Assembly: GCF_004376175.1 (NCBI RefSeq)
Contig: NZ_SNUY01000086.1
Location: 1 to 12,849, forward strand
Length of the DNA stretch: 12,849 nt
Direction of reading: 5' to 3'
DNA from: Halalkalibacterium halodurans
GTDB taxonomy: Bacteria > Bacillota > Bacilli > Bacillales > Bacillaceae_D
This document shows positions 1,861-12,849 of the stretch, one piece after another. The notes beneath the pieces were generated by a model. It did not search any database. It saw nothing but the letters and a program-made list of their open reading frames with translations, and was not told where the DNA came from. How positions within the stretch are numbered: the first letter of the stretch is position 1; each line of letters begins with the position of its first letter. A program made the position numbers and the translations under genes.

Positions 1861-2562
1861 TTATTCTGTATCTTTTTCAACCCATGGTTTTTTTCCACTA
1901 GCCATTTTCGCTTGAACGCCTTTCGGATGGATTCGATGCTCATCTGTAATCACATTAACCGGATGAAAGCTCCAATATTTCACTAGCTTTCTAAAAAACC
2001 CAGCATCAGCATTCGGCCAAAGCGACGGATGATCATCCCAATTTTTTACTTTTTTAAAACAGGACGCTCGATGCATAAAAGAATTGTGGTCGACTTTTCC
2101 CATAGGATGCTTTGTTACTCCTACAAGAGGTCGTACGAATGTCTTGATCACTTGCCCACGTTTATTGTACTTGAACACGCGTTGCCGTCCATAGACGACA
2201 TGAATGCGCGGATTCCGTTTAAATACTTTGACCATACTTTGAAAGCGTGTAGGATAATACAAATCATCATCGGTTAAGTAGGTGACAAGATCACCAGTAA
2301 TATGGGGGATTGCTAAGTTAATACACGTTGCGTAGCGTGCCGTTTTATAACGGTCTTTATCGGTCACGCTTGATTGAATGAGGGTAATCCGTGGATCATG
2401 ATTGGCGATTTGCCTTAACAGTTGCCGCGTTTGTTCGTTCGAGTGATCATCGACAATGATGAGTTCCCAGTGAGGGTATGTTTGTTTCTGTACACTGGAA
2501 ATGGCCTCCTTTACGCCGTTAGGACGATTATAACTTGTTAGAATACAGCTTATTTTTAACAT
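1861..2562 (-). CDS. Family 2 glycosyltransferase, SpsA-like, 233 aa
   Basis: Start moved from GTG 2595 to ATG 2562, which is preceded by GTAGGGGAACC. MLKISCILTSYNRPNGVKEAISSVQKQTYPHWELIIVDDHSNE plus YLTDDD (DxD) and a later DHNSFMHR block parallel my recollection of B. subtilis SpsA (VIMTSYNK, MDDNSNE, TDDN, DHCSVMHR). Confidence 0.88.
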   Translation of the reverse strand: MLKISCILTSYNRPNGVKEAISSVQKQTYPHWELIIVDDHSNEQTRQLLRQIANHDPRITLIQSSVTDKDRYKTARYATCINLAIPHITGDLVTYLTDDDLYYPTRFQSMVKVFKRNPRIHVVYGRQRVFKYNKRGQVIKTFVRPLVGVTKHPMGKVDHNSFMHRASCFKKVKNWDDHPSLWPNADAGFFRKLVKYWSFHPVNVITDEHRIHPKGVQAKMASGKKPWVEKDTE

Positions 2563-2686: not shown

Positions 2687-3811
2687 ATGGTAAGCCTATC
2701 TCAAGGAACAGCGTTAAGCATAACGGCTTATGAAAACATTTGCGAACAAAAAGAAATACAAGATTTTACCCTCGGTCCTATTCAAAGGAATTATCTCTAT
2801 TTCGCCGGCTCCCCAGAGACAGTGAAAATCAAGCCTCCAATACGCCCTTTCCCCAATCAAAGCATACCGTCACATTGTGAAACGAAACCTTTTTATCTCG
2901 CAAGTATTAAACAGCCAATGTGTGTCAAACACCAAGTGATCCTATACAAACAAACATCTTTATTACCTGATAGCTTCCGGCATGAAACACGAGATGACTT
3001 CCATCAAGCCCTTCACTATGATCTAAAAACTAAGCAGTATCGGATCAAAAGGTTGGAGGAGACGACTCGCTGGCTTCCGGGGGATAGCCTTTTCCTTAGC
3101 GGCGAATTTTCAGGGGAGTATGGTCATTTTCTTTTAGAAATTCTCTCGAGATTATGGATTACAGACTTTATTCAGATTCAATCGCTTCCCATTTTAATGA
3201 ACCCAACCGATCGAAAGCAATGGCAGCTTGATTTATTGAAACCTTTTGGCATTAAGAAGCCGCAAATCGTTCCTTTGCATCAACCTACCGTTTGTGAACG
3301 GCTTCATATTCCGGTTCAATCTTTTTCTCTACGCCGTTATACATCTTCTTTTGCACACAAAGTTTGGAAAACAATCGGTGACTATTATGATACAGGTAGC
3401 CAACAGGTACCCGACAAAATTTATGTGTCAAGGTCCCGGCTTAAATCAAACCGAAGACGCTTGATAAATGAGACCGATGTTGAGCGTCTCTTTAGCCGCA
3501 ATGGATTTCAGATCATTCATCCTCAGGAGCTGACAATCAAAGAACAAATCAATCTTTTTCGTCATGCTCAAGTGATCGCTGGTCCCCTCGGTTCAGCGAT
3601 GTACAATTGTGTTTTTCAAACAAAACCAACAAAAAAATTGCTACTGACCTATGAAAAATTCATCAAAATGAGCGATCTGTTGATCAACACGTCTACAAAT
3701 GGGTTGCTTTATTATTTTGCAGGAACTGAACATAAACAAAACAAATCTCCTAGTAACACTGAATGGTCCATTAATCTTAATCAGCTCGCAGCTTATCTTG
3801 AAAACTTTTAA
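2687..3811 (+). CDS. GT61/DUF563-family glycosyltransferase, 374 aa
   Basis: AGGTGA at 2677-2682, 4 nt before the ATG. The GEYGHFLLEILSRLW motif and the C-terminal block IYVSRSRLKSNRRRLINETDVERLFSRNGFQIIHPQELTIKEQINLFRHAQVIAGPLGSAMYNCVF are characteristic of the DUF563/GT61 (EOGT-like) family. Confidence 0.85.
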   Translation: MVSLSQGTALSITAYENICEQKEIQDFTLGPIQRNYLYFAGSPETVKIKPPIRPFPNQSIPSHCETKPFYLASIKQPMCVKHQVILYKQTSLLPDSFRHETRDDFHQALHYDLKTKQYRIKRLEETTRWLPGDSLFLSGEFSGEYGHFLLEILSRLWITDFIQIQSLPILMNPTDRKQWQLDLLKPFGIKKPQIVPLHQPTVCERLHIPVQSFSLRRYTSSFAHKVWKTIGDYYDTGSQQVPDKIYVSRSRLKSNRRRLINETDVERLFSRNGFQIIHPQELTIKEQINLFRHAQVIAGPLGSAMYNCVFQTKPTKKLLLTYEKFIKMSDLLINTSTNGLLYYFAGTEHKQNKSPSNTEWSINLNQLAAYLENF

Positions 3812-4467
3812 AAATGCTTTAACGAATGATCCAAAAACAGACGTACATCATCTAGACGCTTCTTTGGCGCTCGCCCTAACCGTTGATTCACTGCTGCTAC
3901 CAACTCGTCTGGATGCTGCAATAGATCGCTGAAGTGAACGTCAATGATATCCGCTCCTTCCTCTACAAGCTGCTCGCGAATGCGCTGTTTATTTCCTAGG
4001 TATGGTAGCAAAATTTGTTGCGCCTCTAATTCTGTCATATCATTTCGTCTAACCAAGGATGCAATCGATTCTTTTATTGGACGATGGACAATAATATATG
4101 TGATGTCGGCCACTCTTTCCATTGGCCCTTTCCACAGGTCAAAAGTTAACAACATCCGTGGATCTTTTATGCCCCATGCAGGTTTGGCATGCTGTAATAA
4201 AAAAGTCTTTACCTGCCTTCTCGGTATTTTTAATTGTTTAATAAGTTCAGGAGAAGGCGGTTTTTTCCAACTCCCACCGATAGTGTGTAAAATCCGATCA
4301 TTTACCGCAACGAATTCTTCGTTCTCAAAATGCCCCTTAGGGTTCCATTCATTTTCCTTTAGTAGATGTTGTCCCATATGAACACCTAAATGATACAAAA
4401 CCCCTGCAGTTGCACTTGAGCCTGATCGATGTAGCGTCAAAATAAGGAACAGTTTTGATCGTATCAT
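3808..4467 (-). CDS. Sulfotransferase (RSGSS P-loop type, Sulfotransfer_3-like), 219 aa
   Basis: Start moved from 4617 to ATG 4467, with GGAAAGGGGGGAGAG immediately upstream. Motifs seen: MIRSKLFLILTLHRSGSSATAG, NPKGHFENEEF, WGIKDPR, IVHRP..ES..SL. The CDS overlaps the convergent GT61 by 4 nt. Confidence 0.8.
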   Translation of the reverse strand: MIRSKLFLILTLHRSGSSATAGVLYHLGVHMGQHLLKENEWNPKGHFENEEFVAVNDRILHTIGGSWKKPPSPELIKQLKIPRRQVKTFLLQHAKPAWGIKDPRMLLTFDLWKGPMERVADITYIIVHRPIKESIASLVRRNDMTELEAQQILLPYLGNKQRIREQLVEEGADIIDVHFSDLLQHPDELVAAVNQRLGRAPKKRLDDVRLFLDHSLKHF

Positions 4468-4570
4468 CTCTCCCCCCTTTCCTCTTTTTATACCTTTATG
4501 TGAAGCGAATGTTTTTCGTGTGTACATGTTGTTCCCGATTTCTAAGAGAAAAGCAAAAAAGCGAAATAGA

Positions 4571-5335
4571 TTATCTATCCCGCTTTCCATGGAACCCTTG
4601 TTGATGTTTACGCTCAAAACGCTTTAATCGATAGGCAGACAATGGGTCCAACGCTCGAATCCGTTTGGTCAATAATTCCTTTGCGAACGCATAAAGTTCA
4701 AGGTCAGCTTCATTATTTTTAGCAATTTTCTCCAGTAGATTAGGGGAGATTTCCTCCTTTGATCGCCGTTTTTTCGTTACGTTGTATTTTTGATAAGCGA
4801 CCTGCTTCCAGTTGAACATCTCCTTCATTAAAAAGAGCGAAGCGTCAAACTTTTCGGTTAAGCCTACAACGGCAAAGTGATTTTTTAAAATGTTCTTTGC
4901 CCGATTAACTTCCGTCACGGACGTCAGCTGCCCCCCTAAAATATATCGCGTTTGCAAATTCCGATTCTTCGGAAGTGCCTGATATTCTTCTAAACTCATC
5001 TTCATGACCGACTCATGTAAATTATGCCATTCGATATTGCGAATAAAATAGTACTCTGAAATGACTCGATCGACCGGATCACGCAACATTGTAATATAGG
5101 TCGTGGGACGGTTGAAATATTCATGTACCCCGAAAGGCAAATGACCCTGAACACATTCAATGTTTTGCTTTGATAAACCTTTGAAAATCCCAGGTAATTT
5201 ATGATGCTCCTCGTAAACATCCACACTTTTGCGGCTATCATAATTTCTCTTGATAATTTTTTTTAATGTTGTTCCACCTGTTTTCGGCATATGGAGATGG
5301 ATGAGTACGTTTGCTGAATGATTTCGGTTATCCAT
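4571..5335 (-). CDS. Carbohydrate sulfotransferase, PKTGG type (Sulfotransfer_2-like), paralogue 1, 254 aa
   Basis: HLHMPKTGGTTLKKII is a 5'-PSB motif and TMLRDPVDRVISEYYF a 3'-PB motif. Start chosen at ATG 5335 (MDNRNHSANVLIHLHMPKTGG). This gives the same N-terminal length and the same total length (765 nt) as paralogue 2, and it overlaps that gene's stop as ATGGATAA. No clear SD, so translational coupling is assumed. Confidence 0.82.
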   Translation of the reverse strand: MDNRNHSANVLIHLHMPKTGGTTLKKIIKRNYDSRKSVDVYEEHHKLPGIFKGLSKQNIECVQGHLPFGVHEYFNRPTTYITMLRDPVDRVISEYYFIRNIEWHNLHESVMKMSLEEYQALPKNRNLQTRYILGGQLTSVTEVNRAKNILKNHFAVVGLTEKFDASLFLMKEMFNWKQVAYQKYNVTKKRRSKEEISPNLLEKIAKNNEADLELYAFAKELLTKRIRALDPLSAYRLKRFERKHQQGFHGKRDR

Positions 5336-6092
5336 GTGGACCAAATCCATTTTGATCTTGTAAAAACTGTTGCAGTGCTTTCCTTGCACCTGAATCTAAC
5401 CGTTTGATGTGTTCCTGTAGCTTTTCCTTTGCTGTTTCATAAAGATGAAGGTCCAATGGATTCTTTCGTTTAATGATTTCGATGGTATCTAATCCTATGT
5501 CTGTTTGTCGTTTCCTTTTCTTCGTTACATTCTTTTTTTGATAGGAAATATGATCCCATCCTAATTTCTTCTTCATGATAAATAATGATTCATTATAAAG
5601 CTCTGTGATTCCGACGACAGAAAAGTGTGCGTCCATATGTTGTAACGCTTTGTTTAAATTAGGCTTCCTTTCACCAGATAGATACCTCGTTTGATGATTT
5701 GTTAGTGGCACTTGCAAGTCTGGATCTGTCGACCGCACAAACTGTTCAAAGGTGAGTGGTTTCACTTTTTGATGCATCCGATTTCTCTCATTTTGTAAGA
5801 TGAAATAATAAGTCGATATGATCCGTTCAACTGGATGTCGAAGCATCGTGATATATGTGAAGGGCTGTTGAAAATATTCGTGTACCCCAAAGCGATGATG
5901 ACCATACACACATTGGAGCTCCTTTATGTTTGCGCCTTTTTTCTGTAAATTGTCCAGCTTATTCTTTTGAGGCAGCCTTAAAATGTGCTCAGATCGGTAT
6001 TGTTGATCAAGAATATTCCGTAACGTGATCCCACCCGTTTTTGGTATGTGCATAAAAATAACAAGTGGGATTTTGGTTGATTCGTGTTTCAT
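5328..6092 (-). CDS. Carbohydrate sulfotransferase, PKTGG type (Sulfotransfer_2-like), paralogue 2, 254 aa
   Basis: Motifs seen: FMHIPKTGGITLRNIL and TMLRHPVERIISTYYF. Start moved from ATG 6161 (no SD) to ATG 6092, which has GGAG at 6103-6100 with a 7-nt spacer. Confidence 0.82.
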   Translation of the reverse strand: MKHESTKIPLVIFMHIPKTGGITLRNILDQQYRSEHILRLPQKNKLDNLQKKGANIKELQCVYGHHRFGVHEYFQQPFTYITMLRHPVERIISTYYFILQNERNRMHQKVKPLTFEQFVRSTDPDLQVPLTNHQTRYLSGERKPNLNKALQHMDAHFSVVGITELYNESLFIMKKKLGWDHISYQKKNVTKKRKRQTDIGLDTIEIIKRKNPLDLHLYETAKEKLQEHIKRLDSGARKALQQFLQDQNGFGPHG

Positions 6093-6230
6093 AAGAACAC
6101 TCCAATCAGCAGTCTTTATACCATTAGTATATTTTTCAAAAAACAAGATCGTTCTAGGCATACCGATTAATGATCTGCTTCAACGTTATGAATGGGTATC
6201 AGCGGGAAGAGAGGCGTTAGCGACTAACGT

Positions 6231-6279
6231 TGAAATACAAAATACCCCAAGTGTTAGATTTATGCTCTAACACTCGGGG
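6231..6279 (-). terminator. Rho-independent terminator downstream of the PHP gene
   Basis: The minus strand reads CCCCGAGTGTTAGA-gcataaa-TCTAACACTTGGGG (14-bp stem, one mismatch) followed by TATTTTGTATTT. A smaller hairpin ACCGTTC/GAACGGT (6286-6305) lies between the stop codon and this stem. Confidence 0.7.
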
Positions 6280-6314
6280 TGCAGCACCGTTCCAACAAGA
6301 ACGGTTCTCTCCTG

Positions 6315-7121
6315 TCATTCTTCATCCGCCTTCCATCCAAACTGTCCTAACGAATGTTCATCCGTATGGAAATCAGATCCACCTGTCTTTATAAGTGCAA
6401 ATTCTGTCGCTAACATTTTATACTTCTCCTGGTCGGTCTCGTCATGATTCCGATGCCACACTTCGATACCATCAAAATCAAGGGCTAACAATTCCCGGAC
6501 TAGCGTATCTTCTAAATAAACCGGATGGGCCAATATAGCTTTTCCACCTGCTTCGTGTATCAGCTTGATCCCTTCTTCTGGAGTCAAGATCATTTTGTCG
6601 ATAGCACATGGCTTACCATCTGCCAAATACTCATCAAAAACAGTCTGATAATCTAGAACATACCCTTTTTTGACGATTGCTTTCGCAATGTGAGGTCTTG
6701 CGATGACTCCATCCTCACTAAATTGTTTCACTTCATCGAGGGTAATTGTAAACCCAATGTCATTAAATTTTTCAATGATTTGCATCGCCCGTCCTTCTCG
6801 ATGCTTTTTTAACTGGACAAGGATTGCTTGTAATTTCTCACTCGCTTTAACGTTATACCCGAGAATGTCAACATTTGTTCCTTTGTATTTTGTAGTGAGT
6901 TCAATCGCAGGAATGACGTTAATACCGTGGCGCTTGCCAGCAATAACCGCTTCCTCAATCCCATCAAGTGTATCATGGTCTGTAATCGCGATTGTCCGTA
7001 ACCCGATCTCCTTGGCTTTCTTTACGATAGCTGTCGGCGAATATTCCCCATCGGAGGCTGTCGTATGAATATGCAAATCAAACGCGCCAGCTTGCACAAT
7101 TTCTTTTAAATCCATGTTCAT
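6315..7121 (-). CDS. PHP-domain metal-dependent phosphoesterase, TrpH/YciV (COG0613)-like, 268 aa; candidate 3',5'-bisphosphate nucleotidase
   Basis: Motifs seen: DLHIHTTASDGEYSP, IAITDHDTLDG, E at IELT, ILAHP, GGSDFH. Together these form the PHP metal-ligand pattern. AAGGAG lies upstream of ATG 7121. Confidence 0.88.
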   Translation of the reverse strand: MNMDLKEIVQAGAFDLHIHTTASDGEYSPTAIVKKAKEIGLRTIAITDHDTLDGIEEAVIAGKRHGINVIPAIELTTKYKGTNVDILGYNVKASEKLQAILVQLKKHREGRAMQIIEKFNDIGFTITLDEVKQFSEDGVIARPHIAKAIVKKGYVLDYQTVFDEYLADGKPCAIDKMILTPEEGIKLIHEAGGKAILAHPVYLEDTLVRELLALDFDGIEVWHRNHDETDQEKYKMLATEFALIKTGGSDFHTDEHSLGQFGWKADEE

Positions 7122-7240
7122 TCCTCATTTCTCCTTCGGCAGCTAAGAACAGCAAACGCATCATCCCACGGATGTTGTTCATCTTCCTTTTTTATTAAAT
7201 TAACATAAATCGCTAGGGTTCATGAACAAAAAGAAAAATC

Positions 7241-8551
7241 TTATGATGAAGTGTTAAATCGTGGCTGACACTTGTTCGTTTTCCATTCAATGGTCTCGCC
7301 TTGCTCGTACCTACCGATGGCACGGCTATCTAAAAAGACGGCGTTCTTTATTTGCAAATTTAGCTTCTTCATTACTCTTGATTTAATCGGGTATAGCCGG
7401 TTGTTTCCACTAAGATAGAACTTAAAGCCACAGCGAACAAGAAGACCTTCAGGTAACGGATGCTGATTGTTAACATGAGCTGAAATGGGGGGGCCTGTAG
7501 GAATAGAATCTAAAAAGGAACGGCTTACCTCCACCACTTCACTCGCACGGAATTTATACAACCGAAACTCTTTATGGGTCAAAATGTGACGCTTCCGATG
7601 GTTTTCAACATAATAGATGTGAGGCTCTTGGGAGGCTTTGATTAATCGATGGTTCGGAAAAAACTTCCTCTGCTCCCAAATGTGCTCATCAATAGCTGGC
7701 CCTTCCTTATATTTGAACAAAACAGGATCAGGAATATGAACAACATTTTCTTCACGATAGTGTAATTGTTGAAACATAGTAGGTGTAATGGCTCGTCGGT
7801 GGTTATCTTCTATTAAGTAAACATCCGCTCCTAATCCTTTCACTAACGTACCAGAAGGTAGGTACTCAGGAAGAAATGCGTTTAATGCTTGAAAAGATGT
7901 TGGGCTTTTTAAACATACATCGAGAACCTCATTGATCGGATAAAATAATGCGAATGCCGAAAGTCGGTTCCAGAAGAATGCATCTCCATTATGCCAACAG
8001 ATCGGATCATCATTCCAATAACTTCCGTACGTTTCGTACACCTTCTCGGCCAAACTTCGCCTGTGCATGACCGAACAGTGATCCACTATATTTTCTGCAT
8101 ACCGAATTGTTCCTTTCGTCGGACGAATACGTTCCGCTTGGGTGATCAACTGATTATCTACCGTTCTCACCAGCTGCTTTGAGTAAACGACATCGACACT
8201 CGGATACCGGTCTAAATATTGAACCATTTTCTGCAAGCGCTCTGGTAAATAGTAATTATCATCGGTTAAATAGCAAAGATAGTCACCTGTAGAGCGTGGA
8301 ATGGCTTCATTAATCAATGTAGCATACCGAGTCGACTTGTGCCGTTCTTCATCCTTAACTTGGCTGTTATAATAATAAACGTTCGGATAGAGCATATAAG
8401 AGTCGATCACTTGCTGCGTCTCTTCATTTGAAGCATCATCCATAATCCACAGTTCCCAATCTTGAAAAGGCTGAGACAGCACGCTTTCAATCGCAGCGCC
8501 GACTGTATTTGGCTTATTGTAACTCGTCAAAATAACCGTAACTTTTGCCAT
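7241..8551 (-). CDS. Two-part protein: SpsA-like GT2 domain (aa 1 to about 225) plus a triple-repeat C-terminal region, 436 aa
   Basis: AGAAGGTG lies 7 nt upstream of ATG 8551. MAKVTVILTSYNKPNTVGAAIESVLSQPFQDWELWIMDDASNEE, YLTDDN, DHCSVMHRRSLAEKVYETYGSYWNDD closely parallel SpsA. The C-terminal 200 aa have no counterpart in SpsA. Confidence 0.88.
   Translation of the reverse strand: MAKVTVILTSYNKPNTVGAAIESVLSQPFQDWELWIMDDASNEETQQVIDSYMLYPNVYYYNSQVKDEERHKSTRYATLINEAIPRSTGDYLCYLTDDNYYLPERLQKMVQYLDRYPSVDVVYSKQLVRTVDNQLITQAERIRPTKGTIRYAENIVDHCSVMHRRSLAEKVYETYGSYWNDDPICWHNGDAFFWNRLSAFALFYPINEVLDVCLKSPTSFQALNAFLPEYLPSGTLVKGLGADVYLIEDNHRRAITPTMFQQLHYREENVVHIPDPVLFKYKEGPAIDEHIWEQRKFFPNHRLIKASQEPHIYYVENHRKRHILTHKEFRLYKFRASEVVEVSRSFLDSIPTGPPISAHVNNQHPLPEGLLVRCGFKFYLSGNNRLYPIKSRVMKKLNLQIKNAVFLDSRAIGRYEQGETIEWKTNKCQPRFNTSS
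7289..7861 (-). repeat. Three tandem, diverged ~57-60-aa protein repeats in the C-terminal half of the long GT2
   Basis: R1 is aa 231-287: LPSGTLVKGLGADVYLIEDNHRRAI...KEGPAI. R2 is aa 298-356: FPNHRLIKASQEPHIYYVENHRKRHI...PTGPPI. R3 is aa 366-421: LPEGLLVRCGFKFYLSGNNRLYPI...EQGETI. Shared pattern: [LF]P..xL[VI][KR], aromatic-Y-[LYV], N[HN]R, I, then G..I at the end. Confidence 0.55.
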
Positions 8552-8590
8552 GTGAGGACACCTTCTTTAAGCGATGATTGTTCATACCTT

Positions 8591-8617
8591 TATCGTATGA
8601 TTTTCACCGCTCCACGT
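8591..8617 (-). promoter_or_regulatory. Sigma-K-type promoter candidate for the long GT2 and PHP unit
   Basis: The minus strand reads AC (8617-8616), 16 nt, then CATACGATA (8599-8591). It sits about 40 nt upstream of ATG 8551 and immediately downstream of the split sulfotransferase stop. Confidence 0.3.
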
Positions 8618-8624
8618 GTATCGG

Positions 8625-9486
8625 TTAGATCGCTTTAAAGCCCAACGTCCGTACCTTTTCTAAATCGTTTGGATGAAACTTCCTTAAATCAGCTTCTTTA
8701 TATTTCAACGTCGCTGCTGCCGGATCGATTTTCTCGCTCCATTCATCGAATGCGCCATCATCTACTGCTAAAGATTCAGCCAATTTCTGCAACTGTGGTG
8801 TTGGATTGACACAAAGCTGGTCAAAATGAATAAGCAAAAACCGGTCTTTCATCTGTTTTGTTCCATACATAACCGCTCGTTCGTTTGCCTTAATCCAATA
8901 CGTTAGTGATGCATTAGGGATCATCATAGAATTGTTTGGAATCGTTACACCAAATAATGGCCCCCAATTGAATAACTGCTGTTGATTTTTACTAAAAGCC
9001 ATATTTAATCCATTTCGGATCACATGAATGTACCTTACATTGGGAAAATAGCGATGAATGTAAGGCAAATATAGGTGAGCATTTGGCTCCTTCCACCCCC
9101 ATCCCTGATAGAGTTGCCTGTTTATCGGGTTCGGGGATAGCATGTTCCTTTTTATTTTTTGTGCTAACAAATCTCCATTCCGATAAGTCTGTGCAGCCTT
9201 TTCAATAAATTTAATGTCGTTACCGGTTAATTTTTTGAGTGGTTAGCCTGTTTTCTAAAATTTTAAGTCCGCGAAAAATTTCCTGTTCATTCAAGTTTAC
9301 AACCTTCGAAAACCAAATCGGTCGCTTAAATAACAAACTAAAATACAACAAATCCTTTGATTGATTTAGCATGTCCCCGAGATAAAAACCCATATCCATT
9401 ACAATTTCGGCAATGAGCCTCGTCCCGCTCCCACCAACACCACCAATGACAATAGGACCTTGCTTTGCAAAATCAGGCACAATCAC
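8625..9486 (-). pseudogene. Sulfotransferase (GGSGTR type) split into two ORFs by a 1-nt frameshift in an A6 tract
   Basis: ORF 9220-9486 gives the N-terminus with IVIGGVGGSGTRLIAEIV (PAPS P-loop). ORF 8625-9170 gives WGWKEPNAHLYLPYIHRYFPNVRYIHVIRNGLNMAFSKNQQQ. The second frame is open back to 9242, so the two frames overlap only across 9223-9242, which contains T6 on + (9231-9236). Removing one A gives a continuous ...RLTTQKLTGNDIKFIEKAAQTYRNGDLLAQK..., about 287 aa. Confidence 0.75.
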
Positions 9487-9630
9487 ACCTGCACTACTTC
9501 ACTCGATTATTTTATGAAGAAAGCTAGATACTTGCGTTACGGCAGACGTGGATCATTTGTGCCGCACCACAAAATAAGAAAACTAACTAGATCGGAAGTC
9601 ATATGAGAGGAATAGCTTGGTTAAGAGGAG

Positions 9631-10435
9631 GTGTTACACCGTGCCATCAAACTTAGAAACGGTTCTTTTTTGCACATCCCAAAAACAGGCGGTCTCACGC
9701 TACGGGGGATTATTGAGGATCAATACTCTAAAGATGAGCGATTGAAGTACCCGAGGTTACAACCAGCACGCTTCCATTCACTCATCAAGGACACCGCGTT
9801 TAATCCTCCTTTGTATCTTGGGTTACAACCAGCACGCTTCCATTCACTCCCTAAAAGAAAATTAACATCCTTAAGATGCGTGTACGGTCATTTTGGCTAT
9901 GGCATTCATTCCACACTTCACCAACCGTTTACTTACATTACCATGCTGCGTGACCCCGTGGAACGAGTTATCTCCACGTACTATTTTGTTTTACAAAACC
10001 CGCAAAATCGCCTGCACCATCAGGTGAAGCAGATGAGCTTCGAACAATTTGTTGCTAGTGATCTCCCAGTCGTTAGTAACCATCAAACCCGTCTCATTTC
10101 AGGGAAACCAATCCCGCATCTAGCCCTTGCCAAAAAGCATTTAAACCAACATTTTTCTATCGTCGGGATTACGGACATGTACGCACAATCCATTTTCTTA
10201 ATGAGCCAACGATTTGATTGGAAAAACGTCCAGTACACAAAGAAAAACAAGACAAAACACCGATTAAAACAAGAGGACTTTTCACAAGAAACCATTGCCA
10301 ACATTCGTAAAACGAAATGAGCTGGACCTTGCGCTGTATGATTACGCAAAAGACCGATTGCAGAGGCAGCTTCATTCTCTAGATTCTGTGAGTCAACGAG
10401 GGCTAGAGAAGTTTATCAAACGTCAACTGGTTTAA
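9631..10435 (+). pseudogene. PKTGG-type sulfotransferase paralogue 3, disrupted by two homopolymer frameshifts and a 66-bp in-frame insertion
   Basis: The best SD, GAGGAGGTG (9625-9633), serves GTG 9641, which is in the +1 frame (MPSNLETVLF...). One extra T in the T6 run 9666-9671 would give MPSNLETVLFLHIPKTGG, matching paralogues 1 and 2. The track ORF stops at 10320. The +1 frame then continues KRNELDLALYDYAKDRLQRQLHSLDSVSQRGLEKFIKRQLV to TAA 10433-10435, matching the paralogue C-termini. That shift is at the A4 run 10309-10312. Confidence 0.75.
9755..9849 (+). repeat. Perfect 29-bp direct repeat (2 copies, 66-bp period) flanking a 37-bp unique segment inside paralogue 3
   Basis: GGTTACAACCAGCACGCTTCCATTCACTC occurs at 9755-9783 and 9821-9849, read directly. 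It encodes LQPARFHSL twice. The paralogue 2 alignment shows exactly 22 extra codons here. Confidence 0.95.
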
Positions 10436-10442
10436 TATGTAT

Positions 10443-10487
10443 AGAGAGCAGGCTGCTCTAAGCAAAACAGCCTGCTCTCTTTTCGTT
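10443..10487 (+). terminator. Rho-independent terminator between convergent genes (possibly bidirectional)
   Basis: AGAGAGCAGGCTG (10443-10455) and CAGCCTGCTCTCT (10468-10480) form a perfect 13-bp stem with a 12-nt loop, followed by TTTCGTT. An A-rich tract precedes it for the opposite direction. It lies between TAA 10435 and the epimerase stop at 10489. Confidence 0.75.
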
Positions 10488-10488
10488 A

Positions 10489-11571
10489 TCATGAAAATAG
10501 AATATCTAAAATCTTTTGACTTACACCATGATTTCCGTACGGGTGTTTCCAGTTTGCTTGGTTCGTTCGGATGCTTTCCACACATTGAAGGATGGATTGG
10601 GTTTCAAAACCAGCTAGTTGGTTCGCGCCACATTCAACCGTTTCTGGTCGTTCTGTATTTAAACGTAAGGTGATACAAGGTGTACCAATGATACATGCCT
10701 CTTCTTGTATCCCTCCACTATCAGTTAAGATTCCTTTGGCATCCCGTTGAAGCAACAGAGCGTTAACAAAATTTGTAGGGGGATCAATGAGTATAATGGC
10801 CTCGTTTGTTTTTAGCCGTTCATAAAGGTTATTTTCAATTAACTTTTGTTTCGTTCGAGGGTGTAAGGACAAAACAACTTTCTCCGGGCCTTCCTTTGCT
10901 ACACGATCAAGAGCTTTTACGATTGATGAGAGCCTAAGAGGGTTGTCTGTATTTTCTTGACGATGGACAGTTACAAAAAAATAGGATTTGGGCTGAAGAT
11001 TGAAGGCTTGTAGCAGTTTAGTCGATTGGACATGGCTTTTAATGAAGTGTACTGCATCAACAATCGTTTGACCTGTTTGATAAACCCCATTAACGATCCC
11101 CTCTTTGGCCAAATTTTCCCCTGCTTGCTGTGTAGGTGTGAATAAATACTGAGCGATATGATCAACAAGCACCCGATTAATTTCCTCAGGCATGCTACGG
11201 TCATAGCTTCTTAATCCCGCTTCCACATGGGCAATTTTCACATTGAGCTTTGCTGCAGCTAAGGTCCCACCAAGGGTCGTATTCGTATCCCCATGAACAA
11301 TAACCAGATCAATCTTCTCCCGCTGAATAATTTCTTCAACTCCTGTTAATATTTTTGCCGTCGTTGAAGCATGGGAGCCAGACCCAACCTTCAAATGATA
11401 ATCAGGCTGTTGCAAGTGAAATGTATCTAGAACCGCTCCATCCATTGAATAGTCGTAATGTTGACCTGAATGGATAAACAAATGATGAGGATCTAAGCTC
11501 TTAAGCACCTTTATAAGAACCGCCATTTTAATGAGCTCAGGTCGCGTTCCGACGATGACAGCCGCTTTCAT
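10489..11571 (-). CDS. wecB: UDP-N-acetylglucosamine 2-epimerase (non-hydrolysing), 360 aa
   Basis: AAGGAGAG lies 5 nt upstream of ATG 11571. Motifs seen: MKAAVIVGTRPELIKMA, VHGDTNTTL, HVEAGLRSYDRSMPEEINR, TDSGGIQEEA. These are hallmark WecB/MnaA motifs. Confidence 0.9.
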   Translation of the reverse strand: MKAAVIVGTRPELIKMAVLIKVLKSLDPHHLFIHSGQHYDYSMDGAVLDTFHLQQPDYHLKVGSGSHASTTAKILTGVEEIIQREKIDLVIVHGDTNTTLGGTLAAAKLNVKIAHVEAGLRSYDRSMPEEINRVLVDHIAQYLFTPTQQAGENLAKEGIVNGVYQTGQTIVDAVHFIKSHVQSTKLLQAFNLQPKSYFFVTVHRQENTDNPLRLSSIVKALDRVAKEGPEKVVLSLHPRTKQKLIENNLYERLKTNEAIILIDPPTNFVNALLLQRDAKGILTDSGGIQEEACIIGTPCITLRLNTERPETVECGANQLAGFETQSILQCVESIRTNQANWKHPYGNHGVSQKILDILFS

Positions 11572-11585
11572 GTAATCTCTCCTTC

Positions 11586-11624
11586 TAACTAGAATTATCC
11601 TGCCATTCGTGATGATTCTAGTTA
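11586..11624 (-). promoter_or_regulatory. Perfect 10-bp inverted repeat between the candidate -10 and the epimerase SD (operator or 5'-leader hairpin)
   Basis: TAACTAGAAT (11586-11595) and ATTCTAGTTA (11615-11624) are separated by a 19-nt spacer. One arm abuts the SD (11577-11584) and the other overlaps the end of the CATAGGATA element. Confidence 0.35.
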
Positions 11625-11650
11625 TCCTATGAGAAATAGAGAGATCTGGT
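11623..11650 (-). promoter_or_regulatory. Sigma-K-type promoter candidate for the epimerase
   Basis: The minus strand reads AC (11650-11649), 17 nt, then CATAGGATA (11631-11623). It sits about 52 nt upstream of ATG 11571. Confidence 0.3.
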
Positions 11651-11713
11651 TTGTTTTTTTACCTAATGGCTCTACCTCAATTTGTAGATTTTTTCAGTCC
11701 ACACCATCCTCTT

Positions 11714-12706
11714 CTAATTAGTATAATAAAGCTTGTAAATAATCGGTAACGATGATTTCGCTCTCATCTCATTTGTCATTTCCAAAAGGTTTTGACAGAT
11801 CTTTTGTTTTTTTTCTAACAATGCTTCAATTTTTTCATGAGTTATTGTCTCTTCTACATACCAGTCACTTAGTTGAAGATCATCCATTAAAAATTTAACC
11901 TTAGGTGTACTCTTTAACATTATTGTTGGTACACCATGACTAATGGAAACTAGTCCAGCATGTAACCTACTAGTGATAGTTAAATCACCAGCTGCAAGAC
12001 AGGCCCCTTTTTCTTCTAAACTAATAGAATCGGGAATAATTCTTCGATTTCTTTGATTCGTCGCTTGAATGTTATAATAAAAATCAAGTGATGTATCTTG
12101 CATTGAAATGATATTTTCATTGATCTGTGTCGTTACTTGAGATAATGCCTTTTTGAGGTTATTTCTAAAGTTGGCCGAATAGGCATTAAGTGCAATTAAT
12201 ACGTTCTTTTTACTTTTTGGTAACGGATAGGGCTTTGTTTTAAAGTTCCAAATCGCCTCAGGTACTACATCACAGTCTATGTTTAGATGTTTGTTCAATA
12301 ACACTTTATCCCCAGTCGTACGGACAGTCACTTCTGCTGCTTTTTGTAGTACATATTTTAACTTTGAGCACGCTTCTTCTTTTACTACACGATCATCTAC
12401 TCCTACACGACTAAAGATATATGGCTTTTTGATCCCCTCGTCTAAAAAGGTAAAAAAGTGAGCGCCTAAATAAATTAATCCTCCCCCACCAATAACTATT
12501 AAATCATAAGTGTTTAATTCCTTTCTAAATTCTTCAATCGCTTGATGTGCGGCTTTGACTAACGGATATTTAGGCTTCATGAATGTGTGCCATAAAGATC
12601 TGCTGTATACTGTAATTTCAGATAAAGGGACATTTTTTTTTATATTTTTGATCATCTCTAAAAGATTAATTTCATCACCAAAATTGTTATAGCCTGAATT
12701 ATTCAT
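11714..12706 (-). CDS. Polysaccharide pyruvyl transferase family protein (CsaB/WcaK-like), 330 aa, possibly N-terminally compromised
   Basis: Motifs seen: SGYNNFGDEINLL near the N-terminus, DLIVIGGGGLI, TSRLHAGLVSISHGVPTIML. There is no SD before ATG 12706. An in-frame TAA lies 10 codons upstream. Confidence 0.78.
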   Translation of the reverse strand: MNNSGYNNFGDEINLLEMIKNIKKNVPLSEITVYSRSLWHTFMKPKYPLVKAAHQAIEEFRKELNTYDLIVIGGGGLIYLGAHFFTFLDEGIKKPYIFSRVGVDDRVVKEEACSKLKYVLQKAAEVTVRTTGDKVLLNKHLNIDCDVVPEAIWNFKTKPYPLPKSKKNVLIALNAYSANFRNNLKKALSQVTTQINENIISMQDTSLDFYYNIQATNQRNRRIIPDSISLEEKGACLAAGDLTITSRLHAGLVSISHGVPTIMLKSTPKVKFLMDDLQLSDWYVEETITHEKIEALLEKKQKICQNLLEMTNEMRAKSSLPIIYKLYYTN

Positions 12707-12771
12707 AAAAAATCTTTGATAACCAAATAATGCTTATCTATCAAGGTATTGAGCTAAATGGTCCATGCATC

Positions 12772-12842
12772 AAATAAATGAAAAAAGAATCCATTTCTGA
12801 TATGGTTAAAGCAACGATGAAATAACCACAGAAAGGATTCTT
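12772..12842 (-). terminator. Long imperfect hairpin plus T-tract; probable terminator of a minus-strand gene lying beyond the right edge
   Basis: On the minus strand AAGAATCC/GGATTCTT, TTTCTG/CAGAAA and TGGTTA/TAACCA pair, giving about 20 bp with small bulges. TTTTCATTTATTT follows. Confidence 0.4.
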
Positions 12843-12849
12843 ATAATGG

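Follow-up and report, generated by a model that had tools for sequence, protein, structure and literature searches.

A candidate sulfation module in a predicted sps/cge-type spore-surface glycosylation locus of Halalkalibacterium halodurans

Why should a gene cluster that resembles the spore-surface glycosylation loci of Bacillus subtilis carry five sulfotransferase genes? The question is raised by a 12,849-bp contig of Halalkalibacterium (formerly Bacillus) halodurans, analyzed here over its entire length (the window; proteins deposited at NCBI as TES47494-TES47501). An earlier reading of the DNA, made without database searches (the sequence-only reading), had placed five sulfotransferase genes of three sequence types, called here types 1a, 1b, 1c, 2, and 3, inside an sps-like glycan cluster. 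RefSeq already names all five open reading frames (ORFs) "sulfotransferase family protein"; the biological reading is new, namely an sps/cge-type locus with a sulfation module. With moderate confidence, we propose that the locus directs O-sulfation of a spore-surface glycan in the mother cell late in sporulation, dependent on 3'-phosphoadenosine 5'-phosphosulfate (PAPS) and with recycling of 3'-phosphoadenosine 5'-phosphate (PAP). The counterparts in C-125 are BH3368 (glycosyltransferase family 61, GT61), BH3369 (type 2), BH3370 (type 1a), BH3371 (type 1b), BH3372 (a PHP-domain protein), and BH3373 (a 436-aa family-2 glycosyltransferase, GT2). Loci used for comparison carry L numbers, L001-L006 being other H. 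halodurans loci.

Sulfotransferases of three types

Types 1a (BH3370; positions 4571-5335, minus strand), 1b (BH3371; 5328-6092, minus strand), and 1c (a pseudogene; 9631-10435, plus strand) carry the paired motifs quoted in the sequence-only reading: HMPKTGG and TMLRDPVDRVISEYYF in 1a, HIPKTGG and TMLRHPVERIISTYYF in 1b, and HIPKTGG and TMLRDPVERVISTYYF in 1c, with the two motifs ~67 residues apart. Scores of 42.7, 37.4, and 28.3 bits (9.7e-11, 4.1e-9, and 2.5e-6, respectively) were obtained on the Pfam family Sulfotransfer_2 (PF03567; gathering threshold 22 bits), and the intact 1c of L002 (256 aa) scored 41.4 bits. Secondary matches were to Gal-3-O-sulfotransferase (PF06990; 2.5e-6 for 1a and 3.7e-7 for 1b). 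When a profile of the paralogues was compared with the PDB, the sole clear relatives were heparan sulfate (HS) 6-O-sulfotransferase (1.9e-14) and HS 2-O-sulfotransferase (1.6e-9). These animal enzymes (PDB 5T03 and 4NDZ) are the nearest solved relatives of type 1, and the alignment spans the 5'-phosphosulfate-binding motif (HIxKTGGT, shared as H-I-x-K-T-G-G-T), the 3'-phosphate-binding motif (TMLRxPxxRxxS, shared as I-T-M-L-R-D-P-V-x-R-x-x-S), the catalytic His of a GH pair, and a C-terminal helix (N-x-L-D-x-x-L-Y-E-x-A-K). Across the type 1 alignment, the catalytic Lys (K18), the R-x7-S of the 3'-phosphate site (R85...S93), and the catalytic His (H65) are invariant. Because of the HS sulfotransferase profile matches and the aligned motifs, type 1 is assigned by family, from its sequence, to the carbohydrate-type O-sulfotransferases. 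The animal enzymes reside in the Golgi as type II membrane proteins and use glycosaminoglycan acceptors, whereas the bacterial type 1 proteins are soluble and ~254 aa long.

Type 2 (BH3369; 3808-4467, minus strand) represents an orphan family that has no Pfam model. The motifs LHRSGSS, NPKGHFEN, and WGIKDPR are present as first reported. No Pfam or NCBIfam family was matched at E<=0.01, the only match to a curated model being Stf0 at an E-value of 0.14; a sequence search of the PDB with type 2 found nothing, and comparison of the type 2 and type 3 profiles with hhalign gave a probability of only 29%. Detectable homologues number only 25, mostly from the B. cereus group; some are named "sulfotransferase family protein," and one distant member bears PF13469. 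HRSGSS and R129-x7-S137 are invariant in the family alignment. The AlphaFold2 (AF2) model (pLDDT 92) was used to search the PDB with Foldseek, and all 14 matches at E<=1e-3 were sulfotransferases, including the tyrosylprotein sulfotransferases TPST1/2, Stf0, Stf1, and the CurM sulfotransferase. Type 2 was counted as a sulfotransferase because of these structural matches and the invariant HRSGSS and R-x7-S; in the predicted structure, it has the sulfotransferase fold and PAPS-binding motifs. A type 2 homologue also occurs in an island of the B. cereus group (L009:10001-14398, B. thuringiensis konkukian AE017355; also L007 and L008) together with a TauE transporter, two Sulfotransfer_2-like genes, and a CgeB-like glycosyltransferase, adjoining DUF421/DUF1657 genes. 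This island may be a sulfation module for the exosporium.

Type 3 (8625-9486, minus strand) contains GGVGGSGTR, WGWKEPN, and IHVIRNGLNMAFS, in agreement with the sequence-only reading. Its C-terminal part scored 44.6 bits (2.7e-11) on Sulfotransfer_3 (PF13469; gathering threshold 27 bits), and an intact orthologue from another strain scored 52.7 bits (8.7e-14), with profile positions 1-213 of 216 covered. In the PDB, the intact protein was closest in sequence to TPST1, a weak match (7e-3). Type 3, which the sequence-only reading had not flagged as disrupted, is frameshifted in the source strain: the gene is split into 9220-9486 and 8625-9170, and a poly-A tract at 9231-9236 is A6 where four other strains have A8. 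The disruption of type 1c described earlier is real but was underestimated, as the gene carries three or four lesions rather than one. These comprise a change from T7 to T6 at 9666-9671, a change from AAA to AAAA at ~10312, and an in-frame insertion of 66 nt between perfect 29-nt direct repeats (9755-9783 and 9821-9849). The insertion, found only in the source strain, consists of the 29-nt repeat and 37 nt without a match (ATCAAGGACACCGCGTTTAATCCTCCTTTGTATCTTG). In most strains, types 3 and 1c are unbroken; L001 has a separate 10-nt deletion in type 1c.

The possibility that sequencing errors account for the frameshifts was considered and judged less likely. In comparison with the closest strain (99.6% identical), the indels in types 3 and 1c are the only ones in ~9 kb, and the remaining 24 homopolymers of 6 nt or more show no change. 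Because the indels are confined to two genes and the other homopolymers are unaltered, the sequence comparison makes real inactivation of types 3 and 1c more likely, and the source strain would then have at most three functional sulfotransferases. Types 1a, 1b, and 2 and the PHP gene are unbroken in every strain seen, and the intact sulfotransferase copies are under purifying selection: the between-strain ratio of nonsynonymous to synonymous polymorphism (pN/pS) is ~0.1 for type 1a and 0-0.12 for type 2.

Collectively, the profile and structure searches placed all five loci among sulfotransferases and none in another family. Their identity as sulfotransferases of three types is solid, and PAPS-dependent activity is predicted from the sequences and models. 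The sequence-only reading had also suggested regio-specific sulfation, for which the indication is paralogue number only.

A PHP-domain phosphoesterase linked to PAPS genes

The description of a five-sulfotransferase locus stood, but it had passed over a gene that appears to be part of the same system. This gene (BH3372, "TrpH"; 6315-7121, minus strand) encodes a PHP-domain phosphoesterase, and this PHP protein is present in complete as well as draft genomes of H. halodurans. Its best NCBIfam family was 3',5'-nucleoside bisphosphate phosphatase (NF041577; 4.7e-55, 186.7 bits), and its PDB matches were E. coli RNase AM (7UG9; 1.4e-33) and Cv1693 (2YB1; 1e-31). Cv1693 hydrolyses PAP (PMC8268124), which is both a by-product and an inhibitor of sulfotransferases. 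BH3372 retains eight of the nine metal ligands (H17, H19, D24, H49, E74, H199, D250, and H252), the 5'-phosphate pocket (R108, R111, and R142), and the stacking Phe (F162) described for RNase AM and Cv1693 (PMC9410882). Cv1693, a 3',5'-bisphosphate nucleotidase from C. violaceum, and RNase AM/YciV (PHP, COG0613) belong to the same fold family as BH3372 at ~33% identity; the Firmicute subfamily differs from them in being tied in genomes to adenosine 5'-phosphosulfate (APS) kinase and sulfotransferases.

This linkage is evident at several levels. In Bacillus sp. JJ1521, a PHP orthologue (~60% identical) and an APS kinase domain form one in-frame fusion, with genes for ATP sulfurylase, a TauE-family transporter, and two sulfotransferases on its flanks, and JJ1566 is arranged alike. 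The fusion ORF (487 aa) lies at L022:12452-13915 and L025:12472-13848 in two Bacillus sp. genomes; a single polypeptide would thus help to make PAPS and also destroy PAP. Such fusions are rare, since none was found among the 120 closest PHP homologues, and exact look-ups of the fusion protein and of the Halalkalibacter lacteus Sat/APS kinase returned no entries. Orthologues also stand beside sat, APS kinase, TauE, or sulfotransferase genes in at least nine other spore-formers (APS kinase, sat, TauE, or sulfotransferases adjoin the PHP gene in L012, L014, L019, L090, and L093; the distance is ~0.8 kb to TauE in L092 and ~6 kb to sat/APS kinase in L091). Lederbergia citrea has YheC/D-like ATP-grasp genes followed by PHP, sat, APS kinase, TauE, and three sulfotransferases. 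Four further PHP homologues were sampled for context. The PHP gene directly follows APS kinase in Desulfofarcimen, sits between three sulfotransferases and APS kinase in one Paenibacillus, is near TauE in an rml/glycosyltransferase locus in Effusibacillus, and is ~6 kb from sat and APS kinase in Cytobacillus.

Because of this genomic association with PAPS genes, which includes a gene fusion, BH3372 is quite likely to be a PAP phosphatase dedicated to the sulfation module, and its subfamily is probably a new clade of PAP phosphatases. Within the H. halodurans locus, the PHP gene and the CgeD-family GT2 gene upstream of it appear to form one transcription unit, closed by a strong intrinsic terminator (6244-6280, minus strand) with a 15-bp stem and a T tract. 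Other genes recur near the cassette in other genomes: YheC/D-like ATP-grasp genes adjoin the sat-cysC-PHP-TauE-sulfotransferase group (L012:2188-4850 and L014:13145-16969), and in one Bacillus and one Paenibacillus a HipA_2-like kinase with two Pfam-less proteins (~207 aa and ~245-265 aa) is found beside the sulfotransferase/PAPS cassette (L022:6697-9004 and L093:2569-4803).

Sulfation also requires PAPS, and the capacity for its synthesis was checked at the level of the species. The orthologue table of Eichenberger et al. lists a sat-like gene (BH1487) and an APS kinase gene (BH1489) in C-125 (PMC517825 supplement), so both steps are represented in H. halodurans. None of the computational checks that the sequence-only reading had offered as possible refutations went against its proposal. 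Type 1 homology led to 40 Firmicute loci, and at least 22 of them have sat and/or APS kinase no more than 10 kb from the type 1 homologue. The nearest genera (Halalkalibacter urbisdiaboli, H. lacteus, and Bacillus solitudinis; L010, L027, and L034) have sat/APS kinase genes immediately upstream of their sulfotransferase genes, within the same rml/cgeD locus. A precedent for late PAPS synthesis is the B. subtilis yitBA-yisZ (sat/APS-kinase) operon, which is sigma-K-dependent in the mother cell (PMC517825).

Sporulation context and competing explanations

The sps-like character of the cluster was borne out by its glycosyltransferases, its rmlC and rmlD genes, and its putative promoters. The smaller GT2 (233 aa; 1861-2562, minus strand; PF00535, 1.9e-24) matched the structure of B. 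subtilis SpsA (PDB 1H7L) at 1.1e-39, with the next match at 1e-8. The sequence-only reading had described two SpsA-like GT2s; the second (436 aa; 7241-8551, minus strand; PF00535, 4.2e-25) is a full-length member of a family named CgeD in many Bacillaceae. Its C-125 counterpart, BH3373, is listed as the cgeD orthologue (PMC517825). As claimed at the outset, no Wzx/Wzy-type flippase or polymerase, ABC or other exporter, or priming transferase was found, either in the window or in the 10-kb flanks of four other strains.

The window was also searched for the sigma-K consensus (AC-N16/17-CATANNNTA). Exact matches occur on the minus strand at 2605-2631 (AC-N16-CATACCATA), 43 nt upstream of the spsA-like start; at 8591-8617 (AC-N16-CATACGATA), 40 nt upstream of cgeD; and at 11623-11650 (AC-N17-CATAGGATA), 52 nt upstream of the epimerase gene. 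These three compare with 0.73 expected, and each lies between genes, on the correct strand, 40-52 nt before a start codon. Near-consensus sites with one mismatch precede type 1b (6125-6152, minus strand, 33 nt upstream), type 3 (9508-9535, minus strand, 22 nt upstream), and type 1c (9582-9608, plus strand, 23 nt upstream), so that six sites with at most one mismatch fall within 80 nt upstream of starts, in ~1 kb of sequence, where ~0.85 would be expected. A parallel scan for sigma-70 promoters gave no enrichment (25 sites vs 31.9 expected). Across genomes, eight of the 61 sulfotransferase genes that lie in spore-former loci have the exact sigma-K motif within 200 nt upstream (the shuffle mean was 0.74, and 1,000 shuffles never reached eight), as does none of the 47 in non-Firmicute loci, and in three Paenibacillus species it precedes an APS-kinase-sulfotransferase operon. 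Collectively, these results point to an sps/cge-type spore-surface glycosylation locus, with sigma-K transcription predicted from the consensus matches. In Candidatus Frackibacter sp. WG13 (L015:7400-10800), four tandem type 1 genes each have their own exact sigma-K-type motif (AC-N16-GCATAAnnTA); downstream come one more type 1 gene, the fifth, and a homologue of type 2.

The resemblance to the B. subtilis spore crust loci (spsA-L and cgeAB/cgeCDE) extends to SpsA, CgeD, and SpsJKL/RmlBDC homologues, sigma-K-type sites, and the lack of an exporter. The two differ in that the H. halodurans window has a GT61 gene and showed none of the legionaminic-acid genes spsC-G. To our knowledge, the B. 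subtilis sps and cge loci contain neither sulfotransferases nor a PAP phosphatase, and a literature search for either in those loci found none. The products of sps and cge are polysaccharides on the outermost spore layer (PMC7439481 and PMC517825).

In the mechanism that we propose, the mother cell would transcribe the locus late in sporulation from the sigma-K-type promoters. Sugars including dTDP-rhamnose (rml genes) and probably N-acetylmannosamine (ManNAc; epimerase) would be assembled in its cytoplasm, and the SpsA-like, CgeD-like, and GT61 enzymes would build the glycan on components of the outer spore layers. No exporter would be needed because the glycan is built in the mother cell on those components. 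Up to five PAPS-dependent sulfotransferases would then add sulfate esters to the glycan or, less likely, to an attached protein, the work being shared by three enzymes that resemble HS 2-O/6-O-sulfotransferases (1a, 1b, and 1c) and two small TPST/Stf0-like enzymes (types 2 and 3). PAPS would come from sat and cysC elsewhere in the genome (within the locus in sister genera), and the PHP enzyme, co-transcribed with cgeD, would convert inhibitory PAP to AMP and phosphate. The enzyme families, their motifs, the gene order, the conservation across genera, and the PHP-APS kinase linkage are direct observations; from them we infer the timing, compartment, acceptor, and sulfate-ester chemistry.

Several observations weigh against this mechanism. 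It is built from sequence and gene context, and the promoter calls are consensus matches only: the sites before types 1b, 3, and 1c each carry one mismatch, there is no site before type 2, and a single genome supplies, as tandem paralogues, four of the eight sulfotransferase genes with a sigma-K motif elsewhere. Neither sat nor cysC is present in the H. halodurans locus (window and 10-kb flanks), and the source strain carries damage in rmlB and in two of its five sulfotransferase genes. The 187-bit score of BH3372 compares with an NCBIfam equivalog cut-off of 400, and RNase AM, its closest solved relative by E-value, is a 5'-3' exoribonuclease (PDB entry; PMC9410882). The PHP subfamily also has Asp at the position of metal ligand His83 and no equivalent of Arg201 (AHPxLI vs AHPGRY). 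Both changes are consistent across the Firmicute subfamily, which is a distinct clade whose metal site or specificity may differ.

Three other explanations were weighed. The same enzymes might sulfate a vegetative envelope polymer, such as a secondary cell-wall polymer or capsule-like glycan, rather than a spore layer. In an alkaliphile such as H. halodurans, for whose alkaliphily acidic wall polymers are important, a sulfated vegetative polymer might add negative charge to the wall. The combination of pyruvyl transferase and UDP-GlcNAc 2-epimerase resembles the pyruvylated-ManNAc modules of wall polymers; vegetative secondary cell-wall polymers are typically made with this pair too, which counts against a spore product. 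In Effusibacillus and Desulfofarcimen, PHP and TauE or APS kinase occur in polysaccharide clusters with a Bac_transf priming transferase or a Wzx-type flippase, which favors the vegetative reading. However, no such export or priming genes accompany the H. halodurans cluster or its 10-kb flanks in four strains, SpsA and CgeD homologues are present, and sites of the sigma-K type but not the sigma-70 type are enriched, so we regard a vegetative polymer as unlikely. We give slightly less credence to the proposal that the sulfotransferases, or at least types 2 and 3, modify coat or crust proteins (on Tyr, Ser, or Thr) or a small molecule instead of sugars. Types 2 and 3 are indeed nearest to tyrosylprotein sulfotransferases (type 2 to TPST1/2 by structure, type 3 to TPST1 by its weak sequence match at 7e-3), which makes a protein acceptor possible and is a further point against a glycan. 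The TM-scores are only ~0.5-0.57, though, and the trehalose sulfotransferase Stf0 scores nearly as well; type 1 is clearly carbohydrate-type, and all five genes lie amid glycosyltransferase and nucleotide-sugar genes.

It is also conceivable, although this seemed the most doubtful of the alternatives, that H. halodurans retains only a decaying, inactive remnant of the module and that the PHP protein is a housekeeping nanoRNase or 5'-3' exoribonuclease unrelated to sulfation. The type 3 frameshift, the 1c lesions, and the rmlB truncation in the source strain, together with the independent 1c deletion in L001, are what decay would produce, and the missing sat and cysC and the rank of RNase AM as top PDB match fit the same picture. 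Set against these are the integrity of types 1a, 1b, and 2 and PHP in all strains seen, the pN/pS values of 0-0.12 for types 2 and 1a, the unbroken copies of types 3 and 1c in most strains, and the linkage of the PHP subfamily to PAPS genes over many genera. Late mother-cell sulfation of a spore-surface glycan is therefore the reading that we retain. Its extension to other organisms is more tentative: many endospore-forming Firmicutes could coat their spores with sulfated glycans by means of a sigma-K-controlled cassette of sat, cysC, a dedicated PHP-type PAP phosphatase, often a TauE-family transporter, and several sulfotransferases, a generalization for which we see a somewhat less than even case.

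Known sulfation systems and the remainder of the locus

The best-studied case of bacterial glycan sulfation is the xss cluster for synechan in the cyanobacterium Synechocystis PCC 6803, whose sulfotransferases are drawn from PF00685, PF03567, or PF13469 (PMC8205485). Like the H. halodurans locus, it combines several glycosyltransferases with sulfotransferases of different Pfam families, of which xss has two. It differs in having Wzx/Wzy/PCP export and an XssQRS regulator, where the H. halodurans locus has putative sporulation-type promoters, a predicted dedicated PAP phosphatase, and no export machinery. The rhizobial NodH/NoeE and mycobacterial Stf0 enzymes likewise perform PAPS-dependent sulfation of glycoconjugates, and type 2 has Stf0 as one of its top structural matches. 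These enzymes differ in acting on lipo-chitooligosaccharides or trehalose, in lacking any tie to sporulation, and in being only distantly related in sequence. A further parallel is wps-1 of Actinoplanes missouriensis, for which a 2026 genetic study proposed a sulfated polysaccharide of the sporangium matrix made with two sulfotransferases, on a genetic basis and without chemical proof (PMC13390465). Both organisms are Gram-positive, and in both a sulfated polysaccharide in a spore-enclosing structure is proposed from genes, but Actinoplanes is an actinomycete that forms exospores in sporangia, with an exported Wzx/Wzy pathway and an unrelated gene set. According to two recent primary papers, cyanobacteria are the only bacteria from which sulfated polysaccharides have been reported (PMC8205485 and PMC13390465). 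The sequence-only reading had known of no sulfated spore-surface glycan in Firmicutes, and our literature search likewise found no report of one or of sulfotransferases in sps/cge loci, although most subscription journals lay outside the search and absence is not proof.

If the wider reading for endospore-forming Firmicutes is correct, the cassette would represent the first sulfated glycan system in Firmicutes, as well as a hitherto unrecognized factor in the charge, adhesion, and ion binding of spore surfaces. Spore-surface glycans govern hydrophobicity, surface adhesion, and dispersal and are relevant to food hygiene and ecology; sulfate esters, being strongly anionic and charged at any pH, would markedly alter spore-surface properties, and their charge could matter especially to alkaliphiles. 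The idea is directly testable in C-125, which is sequenced and culturable (BH3369-BH3373). As the cassette recurs in Bacillaceae, Paenibacillaceae, and some Clostridia, a positive result would generalize.

The remaining neighbors named in the sequence-only reading were confirmed by Pfam matches. On the plus strand, these are the spsK-like dTDP-4-dehydrorhamnose reductase gene rmlD (523-1410; PF04321 RmlD_sub_bind on the L001 orthologue), the spsL-like dTDP-sugar 3,5-epimerase gene rmlC (1403-1858; PF00908 on an identical orthologue), and the GT61 (DUF563) glycosyltransferase gene BH3368 (2687-3811; PF04577, 1.3e-27). On the minus strand, they are genes for a non-hydrolysing UDP-GlcNAc 2-epimerase (10489-11571; PF02350, 2.1e-99) and a polysaccharide pyruvyl transferase (11714-12706; PF04230, 9.1e-19). 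An Rfam scan of the window found no riboswitch or other RNA.

The spsJ-like dTDP-glucose 4,6-dehydratase gene rmlB is cut down to its final ~55 codons at the left contig end (395-559, plus strand; identified by translation and by blastn matches to L001-L006 that begin at 395), and rmlA and rmlB occur in the loci of other H. halodurans strains. Contig positions below 395 had no blastn match to the rmlB region of L001-L006. A minus-strand ORF that starts at ~165 (MKPTFIAHETYQNF...) exits the contig here, and its 55-aa N-terminus matched no Pfam or NCBIfam family. The left contig end may be an insertion or rearrangement junction.

Strain variation is pronounced at the other end. The flank past type 1c (10436-12849) differs among strains, as seen against positions 1-6700 of L001-L004. 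The UDP-GlcNAc 2-epimerase and pyruvyl transferase belong to this strain-variable part and occur in the source strain and one further lineage, the epimerase being present in only two strains; other strains have GT4 glycosyltransferases, an epimerase, and extra sulfotransferases (Sulfotransfer_1 or a fourth type 1). This variation suggests glycan structures specific to the strain. At a finer scale, a 2-nt indel at 6119-6120, 27 nt upstream of type 1b in its putative promoter region, and a 3-nt in-frame indel within type 1b at 5948 set the source strain and its nearest relatives apart from L001-L004.

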